From Squalus acanthias (taxonomy: Eukaryota), in contig CM059432.1 of assembly GCA_030390025.1 (NCBI GenBank), positions 74,712,001 to 74,776,000 on the forward strand: a DNA stretch of 64,000 nucleotides, given 5' to 3'. The notes beneath the pieces are model-generated. The model searched no databases. It had not been told where the DNA came from and was given only the letters and a program-made list of their open reading frames with translations. A program made the translations under genes and the position numbers. Below, piece after piece: positions 1-53,600 of this stretch (position 1 is the stretch's first letter; the number at the start of each line of letters is the position of its first letter).

Positions 1-3000
1 GAATCAACACAAAGGATCAATAGAAGCGATCATTTCAAGTGATCAGTACAAGGGATCAATACAAGGGATCTATACAAGTGATCAATAGTAGGGATCAATA
101 CAAGACAGAAATAGAAGGGATCAATACAAGGGATCTATACAAGTGATCAATAGAAGGGATCAATGCAAGGGATCAATACAAGGGATCAATACAAGGGTTG
201 AATACAAGAGTCAATACAAGGGATCAATACAAGGGATCTGTACAAGGGGATCAATACAAGGAATCAATACAATGGATCAATAGACGCGATCAATGGAAGG
301 GATCAATACAAGGGATCAATACAAGGGATCAATAGCAGGAGTCAATACAAGGGATCAATACAAGGGATCAATACAAGGAATCAATAGAAGGGATCAATAC
401 AAGGAATCAATACAAGGCACAAATAGAAGGGATCAATACAAGGGATCTGTACAAGGGGATCAATACAAGGAATCAATACAACGGATCAATAGAAGGGATC
501 AATAGAAGGGATCAATAGAAGTGATCAATACAAGGGATCAATACAAGGGATCAATAGCAGGGATCAATACAAGGGATCAATACAAGGGATCAATACAAGG
601 AATCAATAGAAGGGATCAATATAAGGAATCAATACGAGGCACAAATAGAAGGGATCAATATAAATGATCAATAGAACAGATCAATACAAGGGATTAATAG
701 AAGGGACCAATACAAGGGATCAGTACAAGGGGATCAATACATTGAATCAATACAATGGATCAATAGAAGGGATCAATAGAAGGGATCAATAGAAGGGCTT
801 AATACAAGGGATCAGTACAAGGGATCAATAAAAGGGATCAATAGAAGGGATCAATACAAGGGATCAATACAAGTGACTAATAGAAGGGATCAATACAAGT
901 GATCAATTGAAGGGAGCAACAGAATGGATCAGTACAAGGGTTCAATACAAGGGAGCAATAGAAGGGATCAATACAAGGGATCAATAGCAGGGATCAATAC
1001 AAGGGATCACTACAAGGGATCAGTACAAGGGATCAATAAAAGGGATCAATAGAAGGGATCAATACAAGGGATCAATACAAGGGACTAATAGAAGGGATCC
1101 ATACAAGTGATCAATTGAAGGGAGCAACAGAATGGATCAGTACAAGGTTTCAATACAAGTGATCAATAGAAGGGATCAATACAAGGGATCATTACTTGCT
1201 ATCAATACAAGGGATCAGTACAAGCGATCCATACATAGCATCAATACAAGGGATCAGGAAATGGCTTCAATATAAGGGATCAATAGAAGAGATCAATAGA
1301 AGGAATCAATACAAAGGCTCAAAACAAGAGATCAATACAAGGATTCAGTACAAGGGATCAATAAAAGGGATCAATACAAGAGACAAAATGAAGGGATCAA
1401 TAAATGGCATCAATAAAATGAATTAATACAAGGGATCAATACAAGGAATCAATACAATGGAGAAATAGAAGTGATCAAGAGAAGGGATCAATAGACGGGA
1501 TCAATAGAAGGGATCAATACAAGGGATCACTACAAGGGATCAATAGAAGGGACTAATACCAGGGATTAATAGAAGGGATCTATACAAGGGATCAATACAA
1601 GGGATCACTGCAAGGGATCAATACAAGGGATCAATACAAGGTGATCAATACTAGGGATCAATACAAGGGATCAATACAATGGTTCAGTACAAGGGTTCAA
1701 TACAAGGGTTCAATACAAGGGATCATTGCAAGGGCTCAATACAAGGGATCAATGCAAGGGATCAATAGAAGGGATCAATACAAGTGATCAATAAAAGGGA
1801 TCAATAGAAGGGATCAATACAAGGGATCATTACTTGCAATCAATACAAGGGATCAGTACAAGCGATCCATACATGGCATCAATACAAGGGATCAGGAAAT
1901 GGCTTCAATATAAGGGATCAATAGAAGAGATCAATACAAGGGATCAATACAAGGGAACAATACAAGGGATTAGTACAAGGGATCAATAGAAGGAATCAAT
2001 ACAAAGGCTCAAAACAAGAGATCAATACAAGGGTTCAGTACAAGGGATCAATAAAAGGGATCAATACAAGAGACAAAATTAAGGGATCAATAAATGGCAT
2101 CAATAAAATGAATTAATACAAGGGATCAATACAAGGAATCAATACAATGGAGAAAGAGAAGTGATCAAGAGAAGGGATCAATAGAAGGGATCAATAGAAG
2201 GGATCAACACAAGGGATCACTACAAGGGATCAATAGAAGGGACTAATACCAGGGATTAATAGAAGGGATCTATACAAGGGATCAATACAAGGGATCAATG
2301 GAAGGGAGCAATAGAAGGGATCAATACAAGGGATCAATACAAGGGATCAATACAAGGAATCAATACAAAGGATCAATAGAAGCGATCAATACAAGGGATC
2401 TATACAAGTGATCAATAGAAGGGATCAATACAAGGGATCAATACAAGGGATCAATACAAGGGATCAATAGAAGTGATCAGTTTAAGAGATCAGTACAAGG
2501 GATCAATAGAAGGGATTAATACAAGGGAGCAATACAAGGGATCAATACAAGGGAACAATACAAGGGATCAGTACAAGGGATCAATACAAGGGATCAGTAC
2601 AAGTGATCGATACAAGGAATCAATAGAAGGGATCAATAGAAGGGATCAATAGAAGGGATCAATAGAGGGGATCAATGCAAGGGATCAACAGAAGGGATCA
2701 ATACAAGGGATCAATACAAGGGATCAACAGAAGGGATCAATAAAAGTGATCAATACAAGGGATTAATAGAAGGGACTAACATAAGGGATTAATAGAAGAT
2801 ATCTATACAAGGGATCAATACAAGGGATCAATACAAGGGATCTATACAAGGGATCAATACAAGGGATCAATAAAAGGAATCAATAAAATGGATCAATACA
2901 TGGAATCAATACAACAGATCAATAGAAGTGATCAATACAAGGGAGCAATACAAGGGACCAATAGAAGGGACTAATAGAAGGGATCAATACAAGTGTTTAA

Positions 3001-3549
3001 TACAAGTGATCAAGAGAAGGGATCAATACAAGTGATCAGGACAGGGGATCAGGACAAGTGATCAGGACAAGTGATCAGGACAAGGGATCAATACAAGGGA
3101 TCAATACAATGGATCAGTACAAGGGATCAGTACAAGTGATCAATGCAAGGGATCAATAGAAGTGATCAATAGAAGGGATCAATACAAGGGATCAATAAAA
3201 GGGATCAATAGAAGGGATCAATACAAGGGATCAATACAAGAGACTAATAGAAGGGATCAATACAAGGGATCAATAGAAGGGATCAATACAAGGGATCATT
3301 ACTTGCAATCAATACAAGGGATCAGTACATGCGATCCATACATGGCATCAATACAAGGGATCAGGAAATGGCTTCAATATAAGGGATCAATAGAAGAGAT
3401 CAATACAAGGGATCAATACAAGGGAACAATACAAGGGATTAGTACAAGGGATCAGCACAAGACATCAATACAAGGGATCAATACAAGGGATCAATACAAG
3501 GGATCAATAGAAGGAATCAATACAAAGGCTCAAAACAAGAGATCAATAC

Positions 3550-3641
3550 GGGGATAGGGTGGGATATGTGTCGATGCAGGCTCGATGGGCCGAAATGGCC
3601 TCTACCTGCACTGTGGGAATTCTGTATGCTGTATTCTGTGT
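3550..3641 (+). mobile_element. 5'-truncated retroposon 3' end (HE1-like SINE / CR1-type 3' tail), copy 1
   Basis: Non-satellite 92 bp with the CR1-type 3' stem-loop motif GCAGGCTCGATGGGCCGAAATGGCCT (TGCAGG 3575-3580 pairs with CCTGCA 3605-3610) and a 7-mer tail ATTCTGT/ATGCTGT/ATTCTGT. Flanked by AATAC direct repeats (3545-3549, 3642-3646); empty-site paralogues at ~2024 and ~5723 carry a single AATAC. HE1 assignment is by recalled resemblance, not a database search. Confidence 0.8.
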
Positions 3642-6600
3642 AATACAAGGGTTCAGTACAAGGGATCAATAAAAGGGATCAATACAAGAGACAAAATGAA
3701 GGGATCAATAAATGGCATCAATAAAATGAATTAATACAAGGGATCAATACAAGGAATCAATACAATGGAGAAATAGAAGTGATCAAGAGAAGGGATCAAT
3801 AGAAGGGATCAATACAACGGATCACTACAAGGGATCAATAGAAGGGACTAATACCAGGGGTTAATAGAAGGGATCAATACAAGGGATCAATACAAGGGAT
3901 CAATGGAAGGGAGCAATAGCAGGGATCAATACAAGGGATCACTAAAAGGGATCAGTATAAGTGGTCAATACAAGGGATCTATACAAGGAATCAATACAAG
4001 GGATCAATACAAGGGATCAATACAAGGAATCAACACAAAGGATCAATAGAAGCGATCATTTCAAGTGATCAGTACAAGGGATCAATACAAGGGATCTATA
4101 CAAGTGATCAATAGAAGGGATCAATACAAGACAGAAATAGAAGGGATCAATACAAGGGTTGAATACAAGAGTCAATACAAGGGATCAATACAAGGGATCT
4201 GTACAAGGGGATCAATACAAGGAATCAATACAATGGATCAATAGACGGGATCAATGGTAGGGATCAATACAAGGGATCAATACAAGGGATCAATAATAGG
4301 AATCAATACAAGGGATCAATACAAGGGATCAATAACAGGGATCAATACAAGGGATCAATACAAGGGATCAATACAAGGAATCAATAGAAGGGATCAATAT
4401 AAGGAATCAATACAAGGCACAAATAGAAGGGATCAATATAAATGATCAATAGAACAGATCAATACAAGGGAGTAATAGAAGGGACCAATACAAGGGATCA
4501 GTACAAGGGGATCAATACAGGGAATCAATACAATGGATCAATAGAAGGGATCAATAGAAGGGATCAATAGAAGGGCTTAATACAAGGGATCAATACAAGG
4601 GATCAACAGAAGGGATCAATACAAGTGATCAGTACAAGGGATTAATAGAAGGGACTAATATAAGGGATTAATAGAAGGGATCAATACAAGGGATCAATAA
4701 AAGGAATCAATAAAATGGATCAATACATGGAATCAATACAAGTGATCAATAGAAGTGATCAGTTCAAGGGATCAGTACAAGGGATCAATACAAGGGATTA
4801 ATAGAAGGGATCAATACAAGGGATCACTACAAAGGATCAGTACAAGGGATCAATAAAAGTGATCAATAGAAGGGATCAATACAAGGGATCAATACAAGTG
4901 ACTAATAGAAGGGATCAATACAAGTGATCAATTGAAGGGAGCAACAGAATGGATCAGTACAAGGGTTCAATACAAGGGAGCAATAGAAGGGATCAATACA
5001 AGGGATCAATAGCAGGGATCAATACAAGGGATCACTACAAGGGATCAGTACAAGGGATCAATAAAAGGGATCAATAGAAGGGATCAATACAAGGGATCAA
5101 TACAAGGGACTAATAGAAGGGACCAATACAAGTGATCAATTGAAGGGAGCAACAGAATGGATCAGTACAAGGGTTCAATACAAGTGATCAATAGAAGGGA
5201 TCAATACAAGGGATCATTACTTGCTATCAATACAAGGGATCAGTACAAGCGATCCATACATAGCATCAATACAAGGGATCAGGAAATGGCTTCAATATAA
5301 GGGATCAATAGAAGAGATCAATAGAAGGAATCAATACAAAGGCTCAAAACAAGAGATCAATACAAGGATTCAGTACAAGGGATCAATAAAAGGGATCAAT
5401 ACAAGAGACAAAATGAAGGGATCAATAAATGGCATCAATAAAATGAATTAATACAAGGGATCAATACAAGGAATCAATACAATGGAGAAATAGAAGTGAT
5501 CAAGAGAAGTGATCAATAGACGGGATCAATAGAAGTGATCAATACAAGGGATCACTACAAGGGATCAATAGAAGGGACTAATACCAGGGATTAATAGAAG
5601 GGATCTATACAAGGGATCAATAGAAGAGATCAATACAAGGGATCACTACAAGGGAACAATACAAGGGATTAGTACAAGGGATCAATAGAAGGAATCAATA
5701 CAAAGGCTCAAAACAAGAGATCAATACAAGGGTTCAGTACAAGGGATCAATAAAAGGGATCAATACAGGAGACAAAATTAAGGGATCAATAAATGGCATC
5801 AATAAAATGAATTAATACAAGGGATCAATACAAGGAATCAATACAATGGAGAAAGAGAAGTGATGAAGAGAAGGGATCAATAGAAGGGATCAATAGAAGG
5901 GATCAATACAAGGGATCACTACAAGGGATCAATAGAAGGGACTAATACCAGGGATTAATAGAAGGGATCTATACAAGGGATCAATACAAGGGATCAATGG
6001 AAGGGAGCAATAGAAGGGATCAATACAAGGGATCAATACAAGCGATCAATACAAGGAATCAATACAAAGGATCAATAGAAGCGATCAATACAAGGGATCT
6101 ATACAAGCGATCAATAGAAGGGATCAATACAAGGGATCAATACAAGGGATCAATAGAAGTGATTAGTTCAAGGGATCAGTACAAGGGATCAATAGAAGGG
6201 ATTAATACAAGGGAGCAATACAAGGGATCAATACAAGGGAACAATACAAGGGATCAGTACAAGGGATCAATACAAGGGATCAGTACAAGTGATCGATACA
6301 AGGAATCAATACAACGGATCAATAGAAGGGATCAATAGAAGGGATCAATAGAGGGGATCAATGCAAGGGATCAACAGAAGGGATCAATACAAGGGATCAA
6401 TACAAGGGATCAACAGAAGGGATCAATTAAAGTGATCAATACAAGGGATTAATAGAAGGGACTAACATAAGGGATTAATAGAAAATATCTATACAAGGGA
6501 TCAATACAAGGGATCAATACAAGGGATCTATACAAGGGATCAATACAAGGGATCAATAAAAGGAATCAATAAAATGGATCAATACATGGAATCAATACAA

Positions 6601-7209
6601 CAGATCAATAGAAGTGATCAATACAAGGGAGAAATACAAGGGACCAATAGAAGTGACTAATAGAAGGGATCAATACAAGTGTTTAATACAAGTGATCAAG
6701 AGAAGGGATCAATACAAGTGATCAGGACAGGGGATCAGGACAAGTGATCAGGACAAGGGATCAATACAAGGGATGAATACAAGGGATCAATACAATGGAT
6801 CAGTACAAGGGATCAGTACAAGTGATCAATGCAAGGGATCAATAGAAGTGATCAATAGAAGGGATCAATACAAGGGATCAATAAAAGGGATCAATAGAAG
6901 GGATCAATACAAGGGATCAATACAAGAGACTAATAGAAGAGATCAATACAAGGGATCAATAGAAGGGATCAATACAAGGGATCATTACTTGCAATCAATA
7001 CAAGGGATCAGTACAAGCGATCCATACATGGCATCAATACAAGGGATCAGGAAATGGCTTCAATACAAGGGATCAATACAAGGGAACAATACAAGGGATT
7101 AGTACAAGGGATCAGCACAAGACATCAATACAAGGGATCAATACAAGGGATCAATACAAGGGATCAATAGAAGGAATCAATACAAAGGCTCAAAACAAGA
7201 GATCAATAT

Positions 7210-7301
7210 GGGGATAGGGTGGGATATGTGTCGGTGCAGGCTCGATGGGCCGAAATGGCCTCTACCTGCACTGTGGGAAATCTGTGTGCTGTATTCTGTG
7301 T
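7210..7301 (+). mobile_element. 5'-truncated retroposon 3' end (HE1-like SINE / CR1-type 3' tail), copy 2
   Basis: Same insert as 3550-3641 with the same junctions, 3660 bp downstream; 3 substitutions inside the insert and 1 in the left TSD (AATAT). Confidence 0.8.
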
Positions 7302-10300
7302 AATACAAGGGTTCAGTACAAGGGATCAATAAAAGGGATCAATACAAGAGACAAAATGAAGGGATCAATAAATGGCATCAGTAAAATGAATTAATACAAG
7401 GGATCAATACAAGGAATCAATACAATGGAGAAATAGAAGTGATCAAGAGAAGGGATCAATAGAAGGGATCAATAGAAGGGATCAATACAACGGATCACTA
7501 CAAGGGATCAATAGAAGGGACTAATACCAGGGATTAATAGAAGGGATCAATACAAGGAATCAATACAAGGGATCAATGGAAGGGAGCAATAGAAGGGATC
7601 AATACAAGGGATCAATAAAAGGGATCAGTATAAGTGGTCAATATAAGGGATCTATACAAGGAATCAATACAAGGGATCAATACAAGGGATCAATACAAGG
7701 AATCAACACAAAGGATCAATAGAAGCGATCATTTCAAGTGATCAGTACAAGGGATCAATACAAGGGATCTATACAAGTGATCAATAGAAGGGATCAATAC
7801 AAGACAGAAATAGAAGGGATCAATACAAGGGATCTATACAAGTGATCAATAGAAGGGATCAATGCAAGGGATCAATACAAGGGATCAACACAAGGGTTGA
7901 ATACAAGAGTCAATACAAGGGATCAATACAAGGGATCTGTACATGGGGATCAATACAAGGAATCAATACAATGGATCAATAGACGGGATCAATGGAAGGG
8001 ATCAATACAAGGGATCAATACAAGGGATCAATAGCAGGAATCAATACAAGGGATCAATACAAGGGATCAATACAAGGAATCAATAGAAGGGATCAATACA
8101 AGGAATCAATACAAGGCACAAATAGAAGGGATCAATACAAGGGATCTGTACAAGGGGATCAATACAAGGAATCAATACAACAGATCAATAGAAGGGATCA
8201 ATAGAAGGGATTAATAGAAGTGATCAATACAAGGGATCAATACAAGGGATCAATAGCAGGGATCAATACAAGGGATCAATACAAGGGATCAATACAAGGA
8301 ATCAATAGAAGGGATCAATATAAGGAATCAATACAAGGCACAAATAGAAGGGATCAATATAAATGATCAATAGAACAGATCAATACAAGGGATTAATAGA
8401 AGGGACCAATACAAGGGATCAGTACAAGGGGATCAATACAAGGAATCAATACAATGGATCAATAGAAGGGATCAATAGAAGGATCAATAGAAGGGCTTAA
8501 TACAAGGGATCAATACAAGGGATCAACAGAAGGGATCAATGCAAGTGATCAGTACAAGGGATTAATAGAAGGGACTAATATAAGGGATTAATAGAAGGGA
8601 TCAATACAAGGGATCAATAAAAGGAATCAATACAAGTGATCAATAGAAGTGATCAGTTCAAGGGATCAGTACAAGGGATCAATACAAGGGATTAACAGAA
8701 GGGATCAATACAAGGGATCAATACAAGGGATCAATACAAGGAATCAACACAAAGGATCAATAGAAGCGATCATTTCAAGTGATCAGTACAAGGGATCAAT
8801 ACAAGGGATCTATACAAGTGAACAATAGAAGGGATCAATACAAGACAGAAATAGAAGGGATCAATACAAGGGATCTATACAAGTGATCAATAGAAGGGAT
8901 CAATGCAAGGGATCAATACAAGGGATCAACACAAGGGTTGAATACAAGAGTCAATACAAGGGATCAATACAAGGGATCTGTACAAGGGGATCAATACAAG
9001 GAATCAATACAATGGATCAATAGACGGGATCAATGGAAGGGATCAATACAAGGGATCAATACAAGGGATCAATAGCAGGAATCAATACAAGGGATCAATA
9101 CAAGGGATCAATAGAAGCGATCATTTCAAGTGATCAGTACAAGGGATCAATACAAGGGATCTATACAAGTGAACAATAGAAGGGATCAATACAAGACAGA
9201 AATAGAAGGGATCAATACAAGGGATCTATACAAGTGATCAATAGAAGGGTTGAATACAAGAGTCAATACAAGGGATCAATACAAGGGATCTGTACAAGGG
9301 GATCAATACAAGGAATCAATACAATGGATCATTAGACGGGATCAATGGAAGGGATCAATACAAGGGATCAATACAAGGGATCAATACAAGGGATCAATAC
9401 AAGGAATCAACACAAAGGATCAATAGAAGCGATCATTTCAAGTGATCAGTACAAGGGATCAATACAAGGCACAAATAGAAGGGATCAATACAAGGGATCA
9501 ATACAAGGAATCAATAGAAGGGATCAATATAAGGAATCAATACAAGGCACAAATAGATGGGATCAATATAAATGATCAATAGAACAGATCAATACAAGGG
9601 ATTAATAGAAGGGACCAATACAAGGGATCAGTACAAGGGGATCAATACAAGGAATCAATACAATGGATCAATAGAAGGGATCAATAGAAGGGATCAATAG
9701 AAGGGCTTAATACAAGGGATCAATACAAGGGATCAACAGAAGGGATCAATGCAAGTGATCAGTACAAGGGATTAATAGAAGGGACTAATATAAGGGATTA
9801 ATAGAAGGGATCAATACAAGGGATCAATAAAAGGAATCAATAAAATGGATTAATACATGGAATCAATACAAGTGATCAATAGAAGTGATCAGTTCAAGGG
9901 ATCAGTACAAGGGATCAATACAAGGGATTAATAGAAGGGATCAATACAAGGGCTCAATACAAGGGACTAATAGAAGGGATCCATACAAGTGATCAATTGA
10001 AGGGAGCAACAGAATGGATCAGTACAAGGGTTCAATACAAGTGATCAATAGAAGGGATCAATACAAGGGATCATTACTTGCTATCAATACAAGGGATCAG
10101 TACAATCGATCCATACATAGCATCAATACAAGGGATCAGGAAATGGCTTCAATATAAGGGATCAATAGAAGAGATCAATAGAAGGAATCAATACAAAGGC
10201 TCAAAACAAGAGATCAATACAAGGATTCAGTACAAGGGATCAATAAAAGGGATCAATACAAGAGACAAAATGAAGGGATCAATAAATGGCATCAATAAAA

Positions 10301-13300
10301 TGAATTAATACAAGGGATCAATACAAGGAATCAATACAATGGAGAAATAGAAGTGATCAAGAGAAGGGATCAATAGACGGGATCAATAGAAGTGATCAAT
10401 ACAAGGGATCACTACAAGGGATCAATAGAAGTGATCAATACAAGGGATCACTACAAGGGATCAATAGAAGGGACTAATACCAGGGATTAATAGAAGGGAT
10501 CTATACAAGGGATCAATACAAGGGATCAATGGAAGGGAGCAATAGAAGGGATCAATACAAGGGATCAATAAAAGGGATCAGTATAAGTGGTCAATACAAG
10601 GGATCTATACAAGGAATCAATACAAAGGATCAGTAGAAGCGATCATTTCAAGGGATCAGTACAAGGGATCAATACAAGGGATCTATACAAGTGATCAATA
10701 GAAGGGATCAATACAAGGAATCAATACAAGACAGAAATAGAAGGGATCAATACAAGGGATCTATACAAGTGATCAATAGAAGGGATCAATGCAAGGGATC
10801 AATACAAGACAGAAATAGAAGCGATCAACACAAGGGATCAATACAAGGGATCAATAGAAGGGAGCAATAGAAGAGATCGATACAAGGGGTCAATACAAGG
10901 GATCAATACAAGGGAACAATACAAGGGATCAGTACAAGGGATCAATACGAGGGATTAATAGAAAGGATCAATACAAGGAATCAATACAAAGGATCAATAG
11001 AAGTGATCAATTCAAGGGATCAGTACAAGGGATCAATACAAGGGCACAATAGAAGGGATCAATACAAGGGATCAATACAAGGGATCAGTACAAGTATTCA
11101 ATACAATTGTTCAGTGCAAGGAATCAATACAAGGGATCAGTACAAGGGATCAACAAAAGAGATCAATAGAAGGGAGCAATAAAAGAGATCAAATGAAGGG
11201 ATCAATAGAACAGATCAATACAAGGGATTCATAGAAGGGATCAATACAAGGGATCATTAGAAGGGATCAATACAAGGGATCAATACAAGGGATCAATAGA
11301 AGTGATCAGTTCAAGGGATCAGTACAAGGGATCAATAGAAGGGATTAGTACAAGGGCGCAATACAAGGGATCAATACAAGGGAGCAATACAAGGGATCAG
11401 TACAAGTGATCGATACAAGGAATCAATACAATGGATCAATAGAAGGGATCAACAGAAGGGATCAATACAAGGGATCAACAGAAGGGATCAATAAAAGTGA
11501 TAAATACAAGGGATTAATAGAAGGGACTAATATAAGGGATTAATAGAAGGGATCTATACAAGGGATCAATACAAGGGATCAATACAAGGGATCTATACAA
11601 GGGATCAATACAAGGGATCAATAAAAGGAATCAATAAAATGGATCAATACATGGAATCAATACAACAGATCAATAGAAGTGATCAATACAAGGGAGCAAT
11701 ACAAGGGACCAATAGAAGGGACTAATAGAAGGGATCAATACAAGTGTTTAATACAAGTGATCAAGAGAAGGGATCAATACAAGTGATCAGGACAGGGGAT
11801 CAGGACAAGTGATCAGGACAAGGGATCAATACAAGGGATGAATACAAGGGATCAATACAAAGGATCAATAGAAGGGATCAGTACAAGGGATCAGTGCAAG
11901 AGATCAATGCAAGGGATCAATAGAAGAGATCAGTAGAAGGGATTAATACAAAGGATCAATACAAGAGATCAATACAAAGGATCAATACAAGGGATAATTA
12001 AATGGCATCAATACAATGAATTATTACATGCGGTCAATACAAGGGATCAAAGAAGGGATCCACAGAAGGGATCAATATTAGGGATCACTACAAGGGATCT
12101 GTACAAGGGTACAGAACAAGGAATCAGTACATGGCATCCATACAAGGGATCAGGACATAGCATCAATATAAGGGATCAATAGAGGGGATCAATACAAGTG
12201 ATCAGGACAGGGGACCAGGACAAGGGATCAATATAAGGGCTCAGAAGAAGGGATCAATACAAGGGATCAGTACAATGGATCAATTCATGTGATCAGAAGA
12301 AGGGATCAATACAAGGGATCAGTACAATGGATCAATTCAAGTGATTACTACAAGGGATCAATACAAGGGATCAATACAAGGGATCAATACCATGGATCAG
12401 TACAAGGGACCAGGACAAGGGATCAATACATGGGATCAGGAGAAGAGATCAGGACAAGGGATCAATACAAGGGATGAGTAAAAGTGTCAGTACAAGAGAT
12501 CAATGCAAGGGATCAATACAAGGGATCAATAGCAGGGATCAATAGAAGGGAGCAAAAGAAGGGATCAATACAATGAATCAATACAAGGATCAATAGAAGT
12601 GATCAATACAAGGAATTAATACAAGGGATCAAATGAAGGGATCAATACAAGGGATCAGTACAAGGGGATCAACCGTATGGATCAATACAAGTATCAATAC
12701 AAGGGATTAACACAAGGGATCAATATCAGGGATCAATACAAGGGATCAGTACAAGGGATCAGTTCAAGAGATCAATGGAAGTGATCAGTACAAGGGATCA
12801 ATACAAGGGATTAATACAATCAATCAGTACAAGGGATCAATACAAGGGATCAATACAAGGGATTAATACAAAGGACCAGTACAGGAGATCAATAGAATGG
12901 ATCAATACAAGGGATCAGGACACAAGAGCAATGCAAGTGATCAATACGAGGGATCAATACAAGGGATCAATATCAGGGATCAATACAAGGGATCAATACA
13001 AGGGATCAATAAATGGCATCAATACAAGGAATTAATAGAAGGGATCAATACAAGGGATCAATAGCAGGGATAATTACAAGGGATCAATACAAGGGATCAA
13101 TAGAAAGGTTCAATACAAGGAATTAATAGAAGGGATCAATACAAGGGATCAGTACAAGGGGATCAATAAATGAATCCATACAACGGATCAATAGAAGGGA
13201 TCAATAGAAGGGATCAATGGAAGGGCTCAGTACAAGGGATCAATACAAGGGATCAACAGAAGGGATCAATACAAGTGATCATTACAAGGGATTAATAGAA

Positions 13301-14076
13301 CGGACTAATATAAGGGATTAATAGACGGGATCAATGCAAGGTACCAATACAAGGAATCAATAGAAGGGATCAATACAAGGGATCAATACAAGGAATCAAT
13401 ACAAGGGCCCAATAGAAGGGATGAATATAAAGGATCAATACAAGGGACCAATAGAAGGGACTAATAGAAGGGATCAATACAAGTGTTCAAACAAGGGATC
13501 AAGAGAAGGGATCAAAACAAGAGATCAGGACAGGGGAGCAGGACAAGGGATCAGGACAAGGGATCAATACAAGGGATCAATAGAAGGGATCAATACAAAG
13601 GATCAGTAAAAGGGATCAATACAAGTGATCAATACAAGGGATCAACAGAAGGGATCAATACAAGGGATCAATACAAGGAATCAGTACAAGGGATCAGTAC
13701 AAGGGATCAGGACCAGGGATCAATATAAGGGATCAATAAAAGGAATAAATACAAGGGATCAGTACAAAGGATCAGGACAAGGGAACAATACAAGGGATCA
13801 GAAGAAGGGATCAATACAAGAGATCAGTACAATGGATCAATTCAAGTGATCAATAAAAGTGATCAATACAAGGGATCAATACAAGGGAACAATAAAATGG
13901 ATCATTACAAGGGATCAGGACAAGAGATCAGGACAAGGGATCAGGACAAGGGATCAATACAAGGGATCAATAGAAGGGATCAATACAAAGGATCAGTAAA
14001 AGGGATCAATACAAGTGATCAATACAAGGGATCAACAGAAGGGATCAATACAAGGGATCAATACAAGGGATCAGTA

Positions 14077-14228
14077 CCACAGAGGCGGCGGACCTGGGTG
14101 GAGCAACAGCGGCGAGGCGGCGGCGGTAAAAGGCGGCAGCGACCAGGTAGGCCCACAGAGGCGGCGGACCTGGGTGGAGCAACAGCGGCAAGGCGGCGGC
14201 GGTAAAAGGCGGCAGCGACCAGGTAGGC
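14077..14228 (+). repeat. Two 76-bp GC/CpG-rich tandem monomers at the LINE 5' end
   Basis: CCACAGAGGCGGCGGACC...GACCAGGTAGGC at 14077-14152 and 14153-14228, differing at one base (GGCGAGG vs GGCAAGG). Confidence 0.95.
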
Positions 14229-14274
14229 TTTCACCAAGCCGAGAGCAGGAGAGAGGTAAAAAAATAATCGAAGT

Positions 14275-14315
14275 GTGACGTCACCAGAAAGCAGGTAAGT
14301 GATTGGTTGGTGAGT
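14275..14315 (+). promoter_or_regulatory. Motif cluster in LINE 5' UTR: CRE/ATF palindrome, consensus 5' splice sites, inverted CCAAT
   Basis: GTGACGTCAC at 14275-14284 (contains TGACGTCA), CAG|GTAAGT at 14292-14300, ATTGG at 14302-14306, G|GTGAGT at 14309-14315. Function is inferred from motif match only. Confidence 0.5.
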
Positions 14316-14444
14316 ATTTCTCTTTTTTTAATACAAAACTTCAATTCCATAGTTTATAGTTTCTCGGGTATCTGTATTGTAGCGGAGACTGCTGGCATAA
14401 ATTAACTGAAGGGTAAATAATAAATTTTTAATTAATTACATAGA

Positions 14445-15379
14445 ATGGGAGAGCAGGTGATGTGTTACTGCTGCAATATGTGGGAGCTGGTGGACACCAT
14501 TGATGTTGACGGTGAACGCATTTGCAGTAAGTGTTGGCTGCTCGAGGAACTCCGGCTCCGTGTTGATGAGCTGGACACATCAGGGATGGGGAGAGTTACC
14601 TGGACTCCGTGTTTCAGGAGGTAGTCACACCAATTAGAGTAACTAATTCAGAAGTAGCCCGTGGTCAGGGACAGGAAGGTGTGACTACGAGTGAGGCAGG
14701 TACAGGGATCCAGGAGGTAGTGTTGGAGGAGCCGCAGCCCTTGCTCTTGTCCAACAGGTTCGAGGCTCTTACTCCCTGTGTGGATAGGAGCGGGGACTGC
14801 AGGGAGGATGAGCAACCTGGCCACAGCACCGTGGTAAGGGGGGCCATTCAAGTGGGGGGAGTAAAAAGAAATGTTGTAGTGGTAGGGGATAGTATCATTA
14901 GGGGGATAGATAGGGTTCTTTGCAGCCAAGAGCGAGAGTCCCGAAGGCTGTGTTGCCTGCCCGGTGCCAGGGTTAAGGACATCTCCTCTGGGCTGGAGAG
15001 AAACTTGGAGTGGGAGGGGGAGGATCCAGTTGTCGTGGTCCATGTTGGTACCAATGACATAGATAGGACAAGGAAAGAGGTTCTGCTGAGGGAGTTTGAG
15101 CAGCTAGGGGCCAAATTAAAAAGCAGAACCTCGAGGGTAATAATCTCTGGATTACTACCTGAGCCACGAGCAAATTTGGCTAGGGTAAATAAAATCAGGG
15201 AGTTGAATGCGTGGCTCAAAGACTGGTGTGGGAAAAATGGGTTTTGCTTCTTGGGACACTGGCACCAGTACCGGGGCAGGAGAGAGCTGTTCCGTTGGGA
15301 CGGACTTCACTTGGCCAGTGCTGGGACTGGTGTCCTGGCGAATCGAATAACTAGGGCTGTAGAGAGGGCTTTAAACTAA
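14445..15379 (+). pseudogene. CR1 ORF1 (zinc finger + leucine zipper + SGNH/GDSL esterase domain), disrupted by a frameshift near 14574
   Basis: ATG 14445 (AGAATGG context) reads MGEQVMCYCCNMWELVDTIDVDGERICSKCWLLEELRLRVDEL, then stops at TAG 14622-14624 (59 aa). The -1 frame is open from 14570 (HIRDGESYLDSVFQEVVTP...) to TAA 15377-15379 and has GDSII, VHVGTND and DGLH (SGNH blocks I, III, V). Confidence 0.9.
15370..15376 (+). promoter_or_regulatory. Candidate -1 ribosomal frameshift slippery heptamer U_UUA_AAC at the ORF1/ORF2 junction
   Basis: T TTA AAC in ORF1 phase directly before the TAA stop; the -1 frame is the ORF2 frame and has no stop from 15355 to ATG 15418. Confidence 0.55.
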
Positions 15380-15417
15380 TTAGTGGGGGGGAGGTTTCAA
15401 GAGAGCAAAAAATAAAA

Positions 15418-18369
15418 ATGACAACAGAGAGGGTCATAGACATAGGTAGCAGTAGGGGAATCACAAATCAGAGCGTGGCAGGAAGGGACAGAGTGTGTGG
15501 AGTAAAAGGTAAAGTGGTAAAAAGTGAAAAAGCAGGAACTAAGTGCCACAAAACATATTTGAAAGTTCTCTATCTGAATGCACGTAGCATTCGTAACAAA
15601 ATAGACGAGTTAATGGCACAAATAACTACATATGGTTATGATATTGTGGCCATTACAGAAACATGGCTGCAGGGTGACAATGCCTGGGAATTAAACATAC
15701 CAGGTTATTTAACGATCAGGAAGGACAGGCAGGAAGGAAGGGGAGGTGGGGTGGCTATGTTAATAAAGGAAGGAATCACTGTAATACAGAGTAATGATAT
15801 TGGGTCAAAAAATCATGATAATGAAACAGTTTGGGTGGAGATAAGGAATAATAAGGGGAAAAAAACACTAGTGGGCGTAGTCTATAGGCCTCCGAACAGT
15901 TGCAACTCTGTTGGACGGAGTATCAATCAGGAAATAGTTGAGGCATGTAATAAGGGAACATCTATAATTATGGGGGATTTTAACTATCATATTAATTGGA
16001 CAAATCAAATGGGGCAGGGCTGCCTTGAGGATGAGTTCATTGAGTGTATTAGGGATGGGTTTCTTGAGCAGTATGTAACTGAACCGACCAGGGGGCAAGC
16101 AACCTTAGATCTGGTCCTGTGTAACGAGACAGGATTAATTAAAAATGTCCTAGTAAAGGATCCCCTTGGAATGAGTGACCATAACATGGTTGAATTCCAT
16201 ATTCAATTAGAGGGTGAGAAGGTTGGATCTCAAACAAGCGTGCTAAGCTTGAATAAAGGAGACTATGAAGGTATGCGAGCGGAATTGAGTAGAGTGGATT
16301 GGGAAAATAGATTAAAGGGTAAGACGACACATGATCAGTGGTGTACATTCAAGGAGTTATTTTACAACTTCCAAAAAATATATATTCCACTGAAAAGAAA
16401 AGGGTGTAAAAGAAAGGACAGTCATCCGTGGCTAAGTAAAGAAATTAAGGATAGTATTCGACTAAAAACAAGGGCATATAAGGTAGCGAAATCTAGTGGG
16501 AGGACAGAGGATTGGGAAAACTTTAAAAGGCAGCAAAAAATAACAAAAAGATTGATTAAGAAAGGGAAGATAGATTATGAAAGTAAATTAGCAAAAAATA
16601 TAAAAACAGATAGTAAGAGTTTTTATAGTTATATAAAAAGAAAAAGGGTGGCTAAAGTAAATGTTGGTCCCTTAGAGGATGAGACCGGGAAATTAATGGT
16701 GGGAAATATGGAGATGGCAAAAACACTGAATGAATATTTTGTATCAGTCTTTACAGTAGAGGACACTAAGAATATCCCAACACAGGACAAACAGGGGGCT
16801 ATAGGGGGAGAGGAGCTAAACACGATCAAAATCACTAAGGAAGTGGTACTCGGTAAAATAATGGGACTCAAGGCGGATAAATCACCTGGACCTGATGGCT
16901 TACATCCTAGAGTCTTGAAGGAAGTGGCGGTAGGGATTGTAGATGCATTGGTAATAATTTTTCAAAACTCCCTGGATTCCGCTAAGGTCCCGGCAGACTG
17001 GAAAACTGCTAATGTAACACCCTTATTTAAAAAGGGCAGTAGACAGAAGGCTGGTAACTATAGACCGGTTAGCCTAACATCTGTGGTAGGTAAAATTTTG
17101 GAGTCCATTATTAAGGAAACAGTAACAGGACATTTGGATAATCATAATTTAATAGGACAAAGTCAGCATGGTTTTACGAAGGGGAAGTCATGTTTGACAA
17201 ATTTGCTGGAGTTCTTTGAGGAAGTAACATATAGAGTGGATAAAGGGAAACCAGTGGACGTAGTGTATTTAGACTTCCAAAAGGCATTTGACAAGGTGCC
17301 ACACAAAAGATTATTGCTTAAGGTAAAAAATCATGGGATTGGGGGTAATATTCTGGCATGGATAGAGGATTGGCTATCTAACAGAAAGCAAAGAGTTGGG
17401 ATAAATGGTTCATTCTCAGACTGGCAATCAGTAACTAGTGGTGTTCCACAGGGGTCAGTGCTGGGTCCCCAACTCTTTACAATCTATATTAACGATTTGG
17501 AGGAAGGGACCAAGTGTAACATATCAAAATTTGCAGATGATACGAAGATGGGAGGGAAAGTAGTGAGTGAGGAGGACATAAAAAACCTGCAAGGGGACAT
17601 AGACAGGCTAAGTAAGTGGGCAGAGATTTGGCAGATGGAATACAACACTGGAAAGTGTGAGGTGATGCACTTTGGCAGGAAAAATCCTAGAGCAATTTAT
17701 TATCTTAATGGCAAGAAACTGGAGAGTACTGAAGTGCAAAGGGATCTGGGGGTCCTGGTGCACGAAACTCAAAAGGTTAGTATGCAGGTGCAGCAAGTGA
17801 TTAAGAAGGCAAATGGAATGTTGGCTTTCATTGCTAGGGGGATAGAATATAAAAATAGGGAGGTATTGCTTCAGTTGTACAAGGTATTGGTGAGACCGCA
17901 CCTGGAATACTGCATACAGTTTTGGTGTCCTTACTTAAGGAAAGACATCCTTGCTCTCGAGGCAGTGCAAAAAAGGTTCACTCGGTTAATCCCGGGGATG
18001 AGGGGGTGGTCATATGAGGAGAGGTTGGGTAGATTGGGACTCTACTCATTGGAGTTCAGAAGAATGAGAGGCGATCTTATTGAAACATATAAGATTGTGA
18101 AGGGGTTGGATCGGGTGGATGCGGGGAGGATGTTCCCGATGACGGGTGAGACTAGAACTAGGGGACATAGTCTTAGAATAAGGGGCTGCTCTTTCAAAAC
18201 TGAGATGAGGAGGAACTACTTCACTCAGAGGGTGGTAGGTCCATGGAATATGCTGCCACAAAAAGCTGTAGAAGCTACATCATTAAATAAATTTAAAACA
18301 GAAATAGACAGTTTCCTAGAAGTAAAGGGCATTAAGGGTTACGGGGAGCGGGCAGGAATTTGGACATGA
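15418..18369 (+). CDS. CR1 ORF2: apurinic-like endonuclease + reverse transcriptase, 983 aa, intact
   Basis: APE motifs LYLNARS, ITETW, VYRPP, MGDFN, LDLVL, SDH; RT motifs PGPDG, NYRPVSLTS, QHGF, LDFQKAFDKV, GVPQGSVLGP, FADD; CR1-type C-terminus RPHLEYCIQFW...RTRGH. No internal stops. Confidence 0.98.
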   Translation: MTTERVIDIGSSRGITNQSVAGRDRVCGVKGKVVKSEKAGTKCHKTYLKVLYLNARSIRNKIDELMAQITTYGYDIVAITETWLQGDNAWELNIPGYLTIRKDRQEGRGGGVAMLIKEGITVIQSNDIGSKNHDNETVWVEIRNNKGKKTLVGVVYRPPNSCNSVGRSINQEIVEACNKGTSIIMGDFNYHINWTNQMGQGCLEDEFIECIRDGFLEQYVTEPTRGQATLDLVLCNETGLIKNVLVKDPLGMSDHNMVEFHIQLEGEKVGSQTSVLSLNKGDYEGMRAELSRVDWENRLKGKTTHDQWCTFKELFYNFQKIYIPLKRKGCKRKDSHPWLSKEIKDSIRLKTRAYKVAKSSGRTEDWENFKRQQKITKRLIKKGKIDYESKLAKNIKTDSKSFYSYIKRKRVAKVNVGPLEDETGKLMVGNMEMAKTLNEYFVSVFTVEDTKNIPTQDKQGAIGGEELNTIKITKEVVLGKIMGLKADKSPGPDGLHPRVLKEVAVGIVDALVIIFQNSLDSAKVPADWKTANVTPLFKKGSRQKAGNYRPVSLTSVVGKILESIIKETVTGHLDNHNLIGQSQHGFTKGKSCLTNLLEFFEEVTYRVDKGKPVDVVYLDFQKAFDKVPHKRLLLKVKNHGIGGNILAWIEDWLSNRKQRVGINGSFSDWQSVTSGVPQGSVLGPQLFTIYINDLEEGTKCNISKFADDTKMGGKVVSEEDIKNLQGDIDRLSKWAEIWQMEYNTGKCEVMHFGRKNPRAIYYLNGKKLESTEVQRDLGVLVHETQKVSMQVQQVIKKANGMLAFIARGIEYKNREVLLQLYKVLVRPHLEYCIQFWCPYLRKDILALEAVQKRFTRLIPGMRGWSYEERLGRLGLYSLEFRRMRGDLIETYKIVKGLDRVDAGRMFPMTGETRTRGHSLRIRGCSFKTEMRRNYFTQRVVGPWNMLPQKAVEATSLNKFKTEIDSFLEVKGIKGYGERAGIWT

Positions 18370-18511
18370 GTCTAGGTTCGGATCGGTCATGGCCCTGTGG
18401 GTAGTGGAGCGGGCCCAGGGACCGTGTAGCCTGATTCTGCTCCTATTTCGTGTGTGCAATTCTGTTAGATGCAGGAGATGGTTCTGTGATAGTAGATAGT
18501 AGATTGGCGGT

Positions 18512-18611
18512 TAGGATCAGATCAGCCATGATCTTATTGAATGGCGGAGCAGGCTCGAGGGGCCGATTGGCCTACTCCTGCTCCTATTTCTTATGTTCTT
18601 ATGTTCTTATG
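18512..18611 (+). other. CR1 3'-terminal recognition domain: stem-loops plus (TTCTTATG)3 tail
   Basis: GCCAT 18525-18529 pairs with ATGGC 18541-18545; GGAGCAGG 18546-18553 pairs with CCTGCTCC 18577-18584; three exact 8-mers at 18588-18611. Confidence 0.9.
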
Positions 18612-49901: not shown

Positions 49902-50645
49902 AAAGGGGAAGTGCAACGAGACCTGGTTGTCCTTGTGCACCAGTCGCTGAAGGTAAGCATTCACGTGCAGCAGGCGGTTAAGAAGGCAAATGGTATGTTG
50001 GCCTTCATAGATAGAGGATTCGAGTACTGGAGCAAGGATGTCTTGCTGCAGTTGTACATGGCCTTGGTGAGACCACATCTTGAGTATTGTGTGCAGTTTT
50101 GGTCGCCTTATCTGAGGAAGGATGTTCTTGCCATGGAGGGAGTGTAGCGAAGGTTCACCAGACTGATATCTGGGATGGCAGGAATGACGTATGAAGAGAG
50201 ATTGGGTCAATTAGGCTTATATTCGCGAGAGTTTAGAAGAATGAGAGGGGATCTCATTGAAACTTATAAAATTCTAACAGGACTGGACAGACTAGATGCA
50301 GGAAGGATGTTCCCGATGGCGGGGGAGTCCAGAACCAGGGGTCACAGTCTAAGGATAAGGGGTAAGCCATTTAGGACGGAGATGAGGAGAAATTTCATCA
50401 TCCAGAGAGTGGTGAACCTGTGGAATTCTCTACCACAGAAGGCAGTTGAGGCCAATTCATTAAATATATTCAAGAAGGAGTTAGATATATTTCTTAAGGC
50501 TAAAGGGATCAAGGGATATGGGGAGAAAGCAGGGACAGGGTACTGAATTTGGATGATCAGCCATGATCTCATTAAATGGCGGATCAAGCTCGAGGGGCTG
50601 AATGGCCTACTCCTTCTCCTATCTTCTATGCTTCTATGTTTCTAT
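49902..50645 (+). mobile_element. 5'-truncated CR1 LINE (~745 bp, ORF2 C-terminus + 3' UTR), different subfamily from 14077-18611
   Basis: Translates as VQRDLVVLVH...RPHLEYCVQFWSP...KGIKGYGEKAGTGY in one frame with a single TAG at 50145-50147 (Q in the full-length copy). 3' UTR GATCAGCCATGATC...GGCCTACTCC and tail CTTCTATG CTTCTATG TTTCTAT. About 21 differences in the first 78 aa versus the full-length ORF2. Confidence 0.96.
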
Positions 50646-53600
50646 CAGTACAAGGGAACAGTTCAAGAGATCAATACAAGGGATCAATAAAAAGGGATTA
50701 TACAAGTGATCAGTACAAGGGATCATTCAAGGGACTAATACAAGTGATCAATCTAAGGGATTAATATAAGGGATCAGTACAAGGGGATCAATATAATGGA
50801 TCAATAGAAGGGATCAATACAAGGGATCAATACAAGGTATCATTAGAAGAGAACACAAAAAGGGAGCAATACGAGTGATCAATACAAGGGATCAGTACAA
50901 GGGATCAAGAAGGGATCAATAAAAAGAACAATTACAAGGGATCAGGACAGGGGATAAGGACAACGGATCAATATAATGGATTAATAGAAGGGATCAATAC
51001 AAGGGACCAGGACAGGGGATCAGGACAAGAGATCAGGACAAGGGATCAATACAAGGGATTAATAGAAGGGATCAATACAAGGGATCAGTACAAGGGATCA
51101 ATTGAAGGGATAAATATAAGGGATCAATTCAAGGGACCAGTACAAGGGATCAATACAGGGGATCAATACAAGGGATCAATAGAAGGGATAAATACAAGTG
51201 ATCAGGACAGAGGATCAGGACAAGGGTCAGGACAAGGGATCAATACAAGGGATAAATAGAAGGGATCAATACAAGGGATCAATACAAGGGATCAATAGAA
51301 GGGATAAATACAAGGGATCAGGAAAGGGGATCAGGACAAGGGATCAGGAGAAGGGATCAATTCAAGGGATCAGTACAGGGGATCAATACAAGGGATTAAT
51401 ACAAGGGATCAGAACAAGGGATCAATACATAGAACAGTACAAGGGATCAATACAAGGAGTTAATAGAAGGGATCATTATAAGGGATCAGTACAAGAGATC
51501 ATTAGAAGGGATCATACAAGGGATCAATACAAGGGATAAATACAAGGGATCAATACAAGGAATCAATAAAAATGGTTCAATACAAGTGATCAGTACAAGC
51601 GATCAATACAAGGGATGAATAGAACGGATAAATACAAGGGAGCAGGACAGGGGATCAGGACAAGGGTTCAGGACAAGGGATCAATACAAGGGATCAAGAC
51701 AATGAATTCATAAAAGGATCAATACAAGGGATCAATACAAGGGATCAGTACAAGGGATCAATAGAAGGAAGCAATGCAAGGGATTAATAGAATGGATCAA
51801 TACAAGGGATCAGTACAAGGAATGAATACAAGGGATCAGGACAGGGGATCAATACAAGGGATGAGAACAAGGGATCAATAAAAGTGATCAATAGAATGGA
51901 TAAACACAAGGGATCAGGACAGGTGATCAAAATAGGGGATCAGGAGTAGGGATCAACACAAGGGATCAAGACAATGGATTAATAGAAGGGATCAGTACAA
52001 GAGATCAATAGAAAGAATCAATACAAGGGATCAGTACAAGGGATTAATAGAAGGAATCAATACAAGGGATCAATACAAGGGATCAGGACAGGGGATCAAT
52101 ACAAGGAATCAGAACAAGGGTTCAATACATAGAACAGTACAAGGGACCAGTACAAGGGATCAGTACAAGGGATCAATACAAGTGATCAGTACAAGGGATC
52201 AGTTCAAGGGACTAATAAAAGGGATCAATAAACTGGATCAGTACAAGGGGATCAATACAACGGATCAATAGAAGGGATCAATACAAGGTATCATTACAAG
52301 AGAACAATAAAAGGGATCAATATGAGAGATCAATACAAGTGATCAGTACAAGCGATCAATACAAGGGATCAATAGAACGGATAAATACAAGGGAGCAAGA
52401 CAGGGGATCAGGACAAGGGTTCAGGACAAGGGATCAATACAAGGGATCAAGACAATGAATTAATAAAAGGATCAATACAAGGGATCAATACAAGGGATCA
52501 GTACAAGGGATCAATAGAAGGAATCAATGCAAGGGATTAATAGAATGGATCAATACAAGGGATCAGTACAAGGAATGAATACAAGGGATCAGGACAGGGG
52601 ATCAATACAAGGGATGAGAACAAGGGATCAATAAAAGTGATCAATAGAATGGATAAACACAAGGGATCAGGACAGGTGATCAAAATAGGGGATCAGGAGT
52701 AGGGATCAACACAAGGGATCAAGACAATGGATTAATAGAAGGGATCAGTACAAGAGATCAATAGAAAGAATCAATACAAGGGATCAGTACAAGGGATTAA
52801 TAGAAGGAATCAATACAAGGGATCAATACAAGGGATCAGGACAGGGGATCAATACAAGGAATCAGAACAAGGGTTCAATACATAGAACAGTACAAGGGAC
52901 CAGTAGAAGGGATCAGTACAAGGGATCAATACAAGTGATCAGTACAAGGGATCAGTTCAAGGGACTAATACAAGGGATCAATACACGGGATCAGTACAAG
53001 GGGATCAATACAACGGATCAATAGAAGGGATCAATACAAGGTATCATTAGAAGAGAACAATAAAAGGGATCAATATGAGAGATCAATACAAGTGATCAGT
53101 ACAAGGGATCAGTTCAAGAGATCAATACAAGGGATCAGGACAGGGGTTGAGGACAATGGATCAGGACAGCGGATCAGGAGAAGTTTTAATACAAGGGTTC
53201 AGTACAAGGGATCAATAGAAGGGATCAATACAAGGGATCAGGACAGGGGATATGGACAAGGGATCAATACAAGGGATCAATAAAATGGATTAATAGAAGG
53301 GATCAATATAAAGGATCAATAGAAGGGATAAATAGAAGGGATCAGAACAGGGGATTAGGACAAGGGATCAGGACAAGGGATCAATACAAGGGATCAGGAC
53401 AAGGGATCAATACAAGGGATCAAGACAAGGGATCAATACAAGAGATCAATAAAAAGGGATCAATACAAGTGATCTGTACAAGGGATCAGTTCAAGAGATC
53501 AATACAAGGGATCAATAAAAAGGGATCAATACAAGTGATCAGTACAAGGGATCAGTTCAAGGGACTAATACAAGGGATCAATCTATGGGATCAATACAAG

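Follow-up and report, generated by a model that had tools for sequence, protein, structure and literature searches.

How the second open reading frame (ORF2) of a long interspersed nuclear element (LINE) is translated has been called an open and important question (PMC3894237). SART1 requires its AUG together with a downstream structure (PMC3894237, PMC10275272), the ORF2 of L1 is translated independently of an AUG (PMC11485995), and in TRE5-A and TRE3-A of Dictyostelium, which are APE-type LINEs of the L1 clade, ORF2 needs a −1 frameshift (PMC5911963). In viruses, U_UUA_AAC is the slip site of infectious bronchitis virus and is, with G_GGA_AAC and A_AAA_AAC, among the sites most prone to shift on mammalian ribosomes (PMC5009743). 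The −2/−1 programmed ribosomal frameshifting (PRF) in nsp2 of PRRSV, the virus causing porcine reproductive and respiratory syndrome, is stimulated by nsp1beta and PCBP at an unstructured C-rich motif, which works only over a spacer of 9 to 11 nucleotides (nt) (PMC4937337). We analyzed a 64,000-nt stretch of Squalus acanthias DNA (contig CM059432.1, positions 74,712,001 to 74,776,000 of the forward strand; hereafter the window), which consists of a satellite of ~13-bp units and one full-length LINE with the architecture of CR1 (~14077-18611), and compared the junction between the two ORFs of this LINE with that of its relatives. To judge from the comparison of copies and lineages, the junction is a real, deeply conserved recoding-type signal, at which −1 PRF probably joins the protein of ORF1 (ORF1p) to that of ORF2 (ORF2p).

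ORF1 ends GCT TTA AAC TAA, which places TTTAAAC at 15370-15376 in the phase T_TTA_AAC (X_XXY_YYZ), and ORF2 lies in the −1 frame relative to ORF1, opening after a TAG at 15352-15354. An earlier note on this DNA had proposed a slip site here, and all of its coordinates for the heptamer and the two frames were verified, as was the stop-free −1 reading of the window copy from the slip to an ATG at 15418-15420. The frame read after a slip at the heptamer is LISGGEVSREQKIKM. The features that make up the junction are the following.

14570 to 15379, + strand: remainder of ORF1, with an SGNH/GDSL esterase at ~14882-15325 (PF13472, E = 1.2e-10) and ending in RALN before the stop
15355 to 18369, + strand: ORF2 frame, open over 1004 codons, with APE endonuclease and reverse transcriptase (RT) (Pfam)
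15370 to 15376, + strand: slippery heptamer U_UUA_AAC, the final seven coding bases of ORF1
15377 to 15379, + strand: ORF1 stop, adjoining the heptamer; UAA here and in the lineages of the same genome, UAG in distant lineages
15387 to 15391, + strand: conserved G5 at +11 to +15, within a G7 at 15385-15391; candidate stimulator with a fixed 10-nt spacer
15377 to 15558, + strand: −1 frame linker from the slip site to the endonuclease; variable, basic and stop-free, with a family-specific ATG at 15418-15420

The junction can be written as a module, U_UUA_AAC-UAR-N7-GGGGG. The window contains TTTAAACTAR-N7-GGGGG a single time and none of 100 shuffles contains it, which is a weak test given that the pattern was taken from the finding itself. 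Six other in-phase X_XXY_YYZ heptamers lie in ORF2 and one more in ORF1, so that a lone in-phase heptamer says little and the weight of the argument rests on conservation.

The module is present in 16 lineages, from subfamilies of the same genome to invertebrate-like elements at ~30% ORF1 identity. Close copies in the same genome keep the heptamer and the stop at 56 of 60 loci (56 distinct places), and searches with more distant ORF1 proteins found both in 12/12 copies of subfamily B, 10/12 of C/D and 11/12 of E, the twelfth copy of family E being fused in frame with the heptamer still present. To reduce bias, we also used as query a distant ORF1 protein with an ending other than LN, which gave 118 matches in the same genome, and looked at 50 of them. 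TTTAAAC was found in 47 of these 50 copies, the remaining three being one base off, and 46 of the 47 had at least four G at +11 to +15. Of 44 loci from a metagenome scan, nine are CR1-like and extend to the end of ORF1; six of them end exactly in TTTAAAC TAG, and the exceptions are one frameshifted, one point-mutated and one broken copy. In prokaryotic assemblies a scan found 16 loci, with the heptamer before TAG in 11 and differing by one base in another, and the remainder comprised two loci that stop short of the ORF1 end and two unrelated esterases.

The closest named relatives of ORF1 are from rays and sharks. The elements from the two scans have an ORF1 ~30% identical to that of the window and, as their nearest named relative, an annelid protein (P0057), for which reason we call them invertebrate-like; horizontal transfer may have played a part. 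Three bacteria-labelled assemblies (G001-G003; L157-L169, L193-L222) carry animal-type CR1, with 26 matches in the 17.8 Mb of G001, which points to contamination with host DNA. At the level of the protein, L and N do not vary across 27 aligned ORF1s, down to 24% identity. In a survey of the 150 best representatives of 50% clusters (99 with a usable tail, 76 after removal of near-duplicates), ORF1 tails ended in LN in 51/99 usable and 32/76 distinct cases. The carriers named at this level are the turtle Macrochelys, the snake Erythrolamprus, the lizard Zootoca, rays, sharks and the teleost Paramormyrops. Gene models named ribosomal protein S24, hydroxyacid oxidase 2 and mechanosensory protein 2 are largely or partly CR1 (P0015, P0054, P0057, P0028), and one CR1 ORF1 filed under a flatworm parasite may be host DNA.

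For a codon test we took 11 lineage representatives with 29-90% esterase identity and considered the invariant ORF1 columns, excluding Met and Trp. Among the 28 columns obtained, a single codon was used only in the last two (TTA 11/11, AAC 11/11) and in 0/26 of the others, and the relatives are therefore free of the alternative Leu and Asn codons that would have spoken against the slip site of the earlier note. The codon preceding Leu-Asn is NNT in 11/11 and encodes six residues (A, V, G, H, Y or C). Codon usage predicts the T-TTA-AAC triple at 0.022 per lineage, and about four deep groups, taken as three independent repeats, bring this to ~1e-5 (arithmetic from 0.022). In 33/34 tails a codon ending in U is available for the residue ahead of LN, whereas 21% of background residues have none. 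Since protein selection cannot fix synonymous positions, the uniformity of the terminal TTA and AAC points to a nucleotide constraint, and selection on the heptamer is, by this codon comparison, at the level of the nucleotide and not of the protein. In a contrast set of 28 other esterase ORF ends, which includes near-duplicates and non-LINE genes, no X_XXY_YYZ heptamer was found (0/28). Families B, E and F (L107, L129, L153) carry a second, overlapping heptamer, G_GGU_UUA, in the right phase one codon upstream.

Some of the more distant ORF1 tails end otherwise than in LN: eight end in GN (seven of them QGN) and one in SKN, and three further tails carry KN at this position and then run on for a short stretch. 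These GN and KN tails, seen at the protein level only, would fit the heptamers G_GGA_AAC and A_AAA_AAC. Scans of viral contigs returned no DNA relatives of the GN and KN families, one further search found no fused forms, and another gave LN-type elements only.

The phase between the two ORFs is kept as well. Between the ORF1 stop and the first strand of the endonuclease lie 80, 92, 107, 116, 131, 179, 182, 188 or 191 nt, and all nine values are 2 mod 3. Ten representatives, selected for being intact, have a stop-free −1 linker, with 0-10 stops in the other two frames. The heptamer closes ORF1 in 122 distinct copies; their endonuclease lies in the −1 frame in 88, is out of phase in 22, as expected of decayed copies, and was not found in 12; the −1 frame remains open in 81 of the 88 in-phase copies and carries a stop in 7. 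The earlier note had also pointed to an ATG of ORF2 itself at 15418. It is present in the window copy and is not general, as 10/16 lineages have no in-frame AUG ahead of the endonuclease strand, and to the question put in the note the answer is that the ATG is dispensable. Where families F and E have long open copies, the first Met comes at codon 167 and 179, respectively, against a domain start at 47, and thus lies ~120-130 residues inside the ~200-residue endonuclease domain. The site is read through as FKL in one and as YLKL in the other of two database proteins derived from copies fused by accident; the YLKL protein has no Met before the endonuclease. Three of the features of canonical −1 PRF are therefore found here: an in-phase heptamer in the overlap, conservation at synonymous sites and an open −1 frame.

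Downstream of the slip site the lineages share the stop at +1 to +3 and the G at +11 to +15, the latter in 12/12 lineage rows, two of them with one A, in RNA that is purine-rich. The G7 had been placed correctly at 15385-15391 in the earlier note; the spacing of 8 nt suggested there did not hold, only the G at +11 to +15 being conserved, with a spacer of 10 nt. The distance of this block is constant despite varying lengths upstream and downstream. Because the run spans only one full codon of the −1 frame (Gly) and the residues flanking it vary (Q, G or K before; G, V, D or E after), the constraint on G5 looks to be at the nucleotide level. The absence of a clear local pseudoknot, noticed earlier, was upheld, since the fold downstream of the window heptamer has z = −1.16 and 23/200 shuffles fold equally well. 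The stem-loop or pseudoknot 5-9 nt downstream that is typical of canonical −1 PRF was not found by nested folding, pairing scans or a search for G-quadruplex (G4) patterns, none of them a dedicated pseudoknot predictor. We rejected a C-run ~637 nt upstream as a long-range partner of the G-run, which pairs well only in families B and E. What the junction does present is an arrangement of the arterivirus type, with an unstructured motif at a fixed spacer of ~10 nt, and by analogy we hypothesize that G5 might dock a protein, as in the PRRSV signal.

In the frameshifting that we favor, a minority of the ribosomes finishing ORF1 would slip back by one base and continue into ORF2, with tRNA-Leu and tRNA-Asn moving from UUA/AAC to UUU/AAA. 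The product would be an esterase-endonuclease-RT fusion (1315 aa in an intact sister copy) with the transframe peptide ALNLISGGEVSR, made beside free ORF1p. Given that no conserved RNA structure is present, the pause would most likely come from slow termination at the adjoining stop and from G5 at the entry channel for the mRNA, where it may bind a protein. That −1 PRF yields an ORF1p-ORF2p fusion is in our judgment likely, and the conservation of the junction supports the esterase-APE-RT fusion that the earlier note had suggested. A broader proposal is put forward only tentatively, and we would sooner doubt it than accept it: that esterase-bearing CR1 elements of vertebrates and invertebrates make a Gag-Pol-like fusion through a structure-free signal, with G5 docked by a putative protein of the host or the element and heptamers swapped among U_UUA_AAC, G_GGA_AAC and A_AAA_AAC. 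The window copy itself would not deliver ribosomes to the slip site in frame, because its ORF1 is broken upstream, as had been noticed: compared with a copy of 99.4% identity (24 mismatches over 3958 aligned bases), 22 nt are deleted at 14573, and no Met is left in the remnant frame. The frameshift argument thus applies to the LINE family and not to this copy.

Several points weigh against frameshifting. Both the slip and the fusion are predictions from sequence. Slippery sites without a stimulator are usually weak, and the 110 nt downstream have no conserved fold across lineages (z from −2.1 to +1.6). A role of the G-run as a pseudoknot arm or a conserved G4, for which the earlier note had asked that the region be folded, had to be dropped, as no pairing is conserved and the three-tier G4 pattern is found in only 2/16 lineages. 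The C-run upstream falls on Pro codons within a conserved protein motif, and families A, C and D and distant elements lack it. The representatives of the codon test were picked for intact linkers, and an earlier run, with 13 rows of which one was broken, gave one uniform control column as well (Gly, GGA). The lineages are related, in about four deep groups; 29/76 distinct tails show none of LN, GN and KN; and the amniote carriers are known from protein alone, a supplement of CR1 consensus sequences having given only 3' matches. An in-frame AUG precedes the endonuclease in 6/16 lineages, that of the window included, and in one of the 16 (family G) a UAAUG overlaps the stop. Lack of an AUG does not by itself imply frameshifting, as the AUG-independent ORF2 of L1 illustrates (PMC11485995).

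These last points bear on the serious rival, which is reinitiation without fusion: after termination, translation would restart at or near the ORF1 stop in the −1 frame, using an AUG where one is present and another codon elsewhere; ORF2p would then stand on its own as a protein, with the module acting as the restart signal. We regard this as unlikely, although several observations speak for it. Conservation of the stop equals that of the heptamer, restarting right at the stop would likewise call for the −1 phase and an open linker, the window copy carries its ATG at 15418, L1 offers a precedent, and the UAAUG of family G is the arrangement of SART1 (PMC3894237); families that bear an AUG may also use both routes. 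What reinitiation leaves unexplained is the exact fit to X_XXY_YYZ, down to the third base of the preceding codon, and the LN/GN/KN pattern of the tails. The six linker AUGs, at codons 4 and 17-20, are not above the 56-81% expected by chance per linker. Neither form of the SART1-type start, UAAUG (1/16) or a nearby in-frame AUG (6/16), is a general property of the lineages. Family G (L235, L241, L245 and others), whose UAAUG is in the ORF2 frame and missing from its closest siblings, combines by eye a B-like ORF1 end with an A-like ORF2 start and is a possible recombinant that retained the −1 phase. An esterase-endonuclease element without the heptamer (L101/L102) has an in-frame AUG 6 nt past the stop, and its junction is, from this layout, likely of the reinitiation type; that of L079, for which there is little downstream DNA, resembles it.

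We give much less credence to the motif being kept for some other reason, such as a need for a C-terminal LN, a site for binding or packaging of the RNA, or a branch point accompanied by a 3' splice site. L and N are indeed invariant in the protein, but the synonymous positions are beyond the reach of protein selection, and the fixed −1 phase would go unexplained in each case. For splicing, a CAG before the G-run (CAG|G at +8 to +11) in families B, E, F, G and H and in the invertebrate-like elements, together with donor-like motifs in the 5' untranslated region (UTR), would be suggestive, but families A, C and D and L061 have no CAG there and the pyrimidine tract is absent. No GT..AG joint entering the junction was seen in contigs, which cannot show absence and are not used as evidence. 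None of the carriers listed is recorded as RNA.

Fusion at the level of the nucleic acid, by polymerase slippage in nearby homopolymers, is the least credible of all: 14/127 family E matches do have frames of >500 aa (the longest 1290 aa), opened by a G-run immediately ahead of the heptamer that has changed in length, but on the tree they lie dispersed (10 changes, compared with 11.1 under shuffled labels), the majority of lineages lack an upstream run of this kind, and TTTAAAC is too short for polymerase slippage. The splicing or RNA-element and polymerase-slippage readings thus fit only some families. The fused copies of family E include L131, L156, L173-L185 and L188. A naturally fused master lineage within this family is not supported by the scattered tree positions, which are likely to reflect independent copy errors; the tree comprised 32 rows after L186, in which the anchor motif is missing, was dropped, and its bootstrap was not settled.

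The remaining features of the LINE are listed below.

14077 to 14228, + strand: two 76-nt tandem copies, LINE 5' end and 5' UTR
14445 to 14624, + strand: 5' part of ORF1 from the ATG at 14445, with the finger C-x2-C-x16-C-x2-C; frame lost at the 22-nt deletion at 14573
15559 onward, + strand: APE endonuclease, first strand from 15559, Pfam match ~15577-16182 (PF03372, E = 4e-13)
~17035 to 17685, + strand: RT (PF00078, E = 3.8e-31)
18546 to 18611, + strand: 3' stem-loop at 18546-18584 (z = −1.74, modest) and three tandem octamers at 18588-18611, the end of the element

A 3' stem-loop followed by tandem octamer repeats, without poly(A), is a feature of the CR1 clade. The element has this 3' end, APE and RT in ORF2, and a finger with an SGNH esterase in ORF1, the Cys finger C-x2-C-x16-C-x2-C being present in the ORF1 of the intact sister copy. 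The CR1 label rests on this architecture and on the agreement by eye of 18/43 residues near the ORF2 C terminus with a CR1 consensus in the supplement of PMC4316615. A PDB search using the endonuclease region gave no match. The 5' UTR contains, at 14276-14315, TGACGTCA as a palindrome at 14276-14283 and splice-donor-like motifs at 14292-14300 and 14309-14315, and family B has a similar motif just ahead of the ORF1 ATG. The region of the 3' stem-loop is duplicated in degenerate form (18417-18455 against 18558-18596, 77%), so that the element seems to have two 3' ends. The satellite flanks (1-14070 and 18612-64000) are long arrays of ~13-bp units with strong strand skew, in which a dip of AT skew at 50001-52000 may mark another insertion.

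CR1 is a dominant repeat in birds, reptiles and cartilaginous fish, and to our knowledge few conserved frameshifts are known outside viruses in vertebrates. If the frameshift is real, CR1 ORF2p would be a fusion to ORF1p, with RT built into ORF1p multimers as Gag-Pol is into Gag shells. The slip would set the ratio of ORF1p to ORF2p and would change how CR1 ORF2 is annotated and how it is expressed in assays. It would also add a natural structure-free −1 signal and, should the broader proposal hold, a recoding signal of a new class that animal genomes carry in very many copies. The module of 25 nt makes the question of ORF2 translation directly testable by reporter. For CR1 with an esterase ORF1 no frameshift is described in the parts consulted of PMC3905857, and those of PMC5009743 contain no CR1. 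The literature searched holds no report linking CR1 to ribosomal frameshifting; the papers on chicken CR1 ORFs and Repbase were outside its scope, and an earlier mention is quite possible.

The architecture agrees with that of CR1-clade LINEs with an esterase ORF1, namely finger and SGNH domains in ORF1, APE and RT in ORF2, and a 3' stem-loop with octamers. The signal resembles a viral −1 PRF site but without the downstream structure. With coronavirus ORF1a/1b and retroviral gag-pol it shares a heptamer in X_XXY_YYZ phase of the identical U_UUA_AAC class and an abundant first protein, and with gag-pol a second frame at −1 that bears RT, whereas CR1 differs in having no conserved pseudoknot or stem-loop, in its immediate zero-frame stop and in its non-LTR (long terminal repeat) host. 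The PRRSV signal offers an analogy in its short motif, the lack of RNA structure and the 10-nt spacer, although the CR1 motif is G-rich, the slip site is different and the binding protein of CR1 is putative. L1 and SART1 are, like CR1, bicistronic LINE RNAs with low ORF2 output, and family G has the UAAUG; however, the ORFs of L1 do not overlap while CR1 retains a −1-phase slip site in all lineages, and most CR1 lineages have neither the AUG nor the structure of SART1. The precedent among LINEs, TRE5-A and TRE3-A, belongs to a different clade and host, and the figure legend of the review describing them names no slip site or stimulator (PMC5911963), whereas in CR1 a specific module is conserved across animals.

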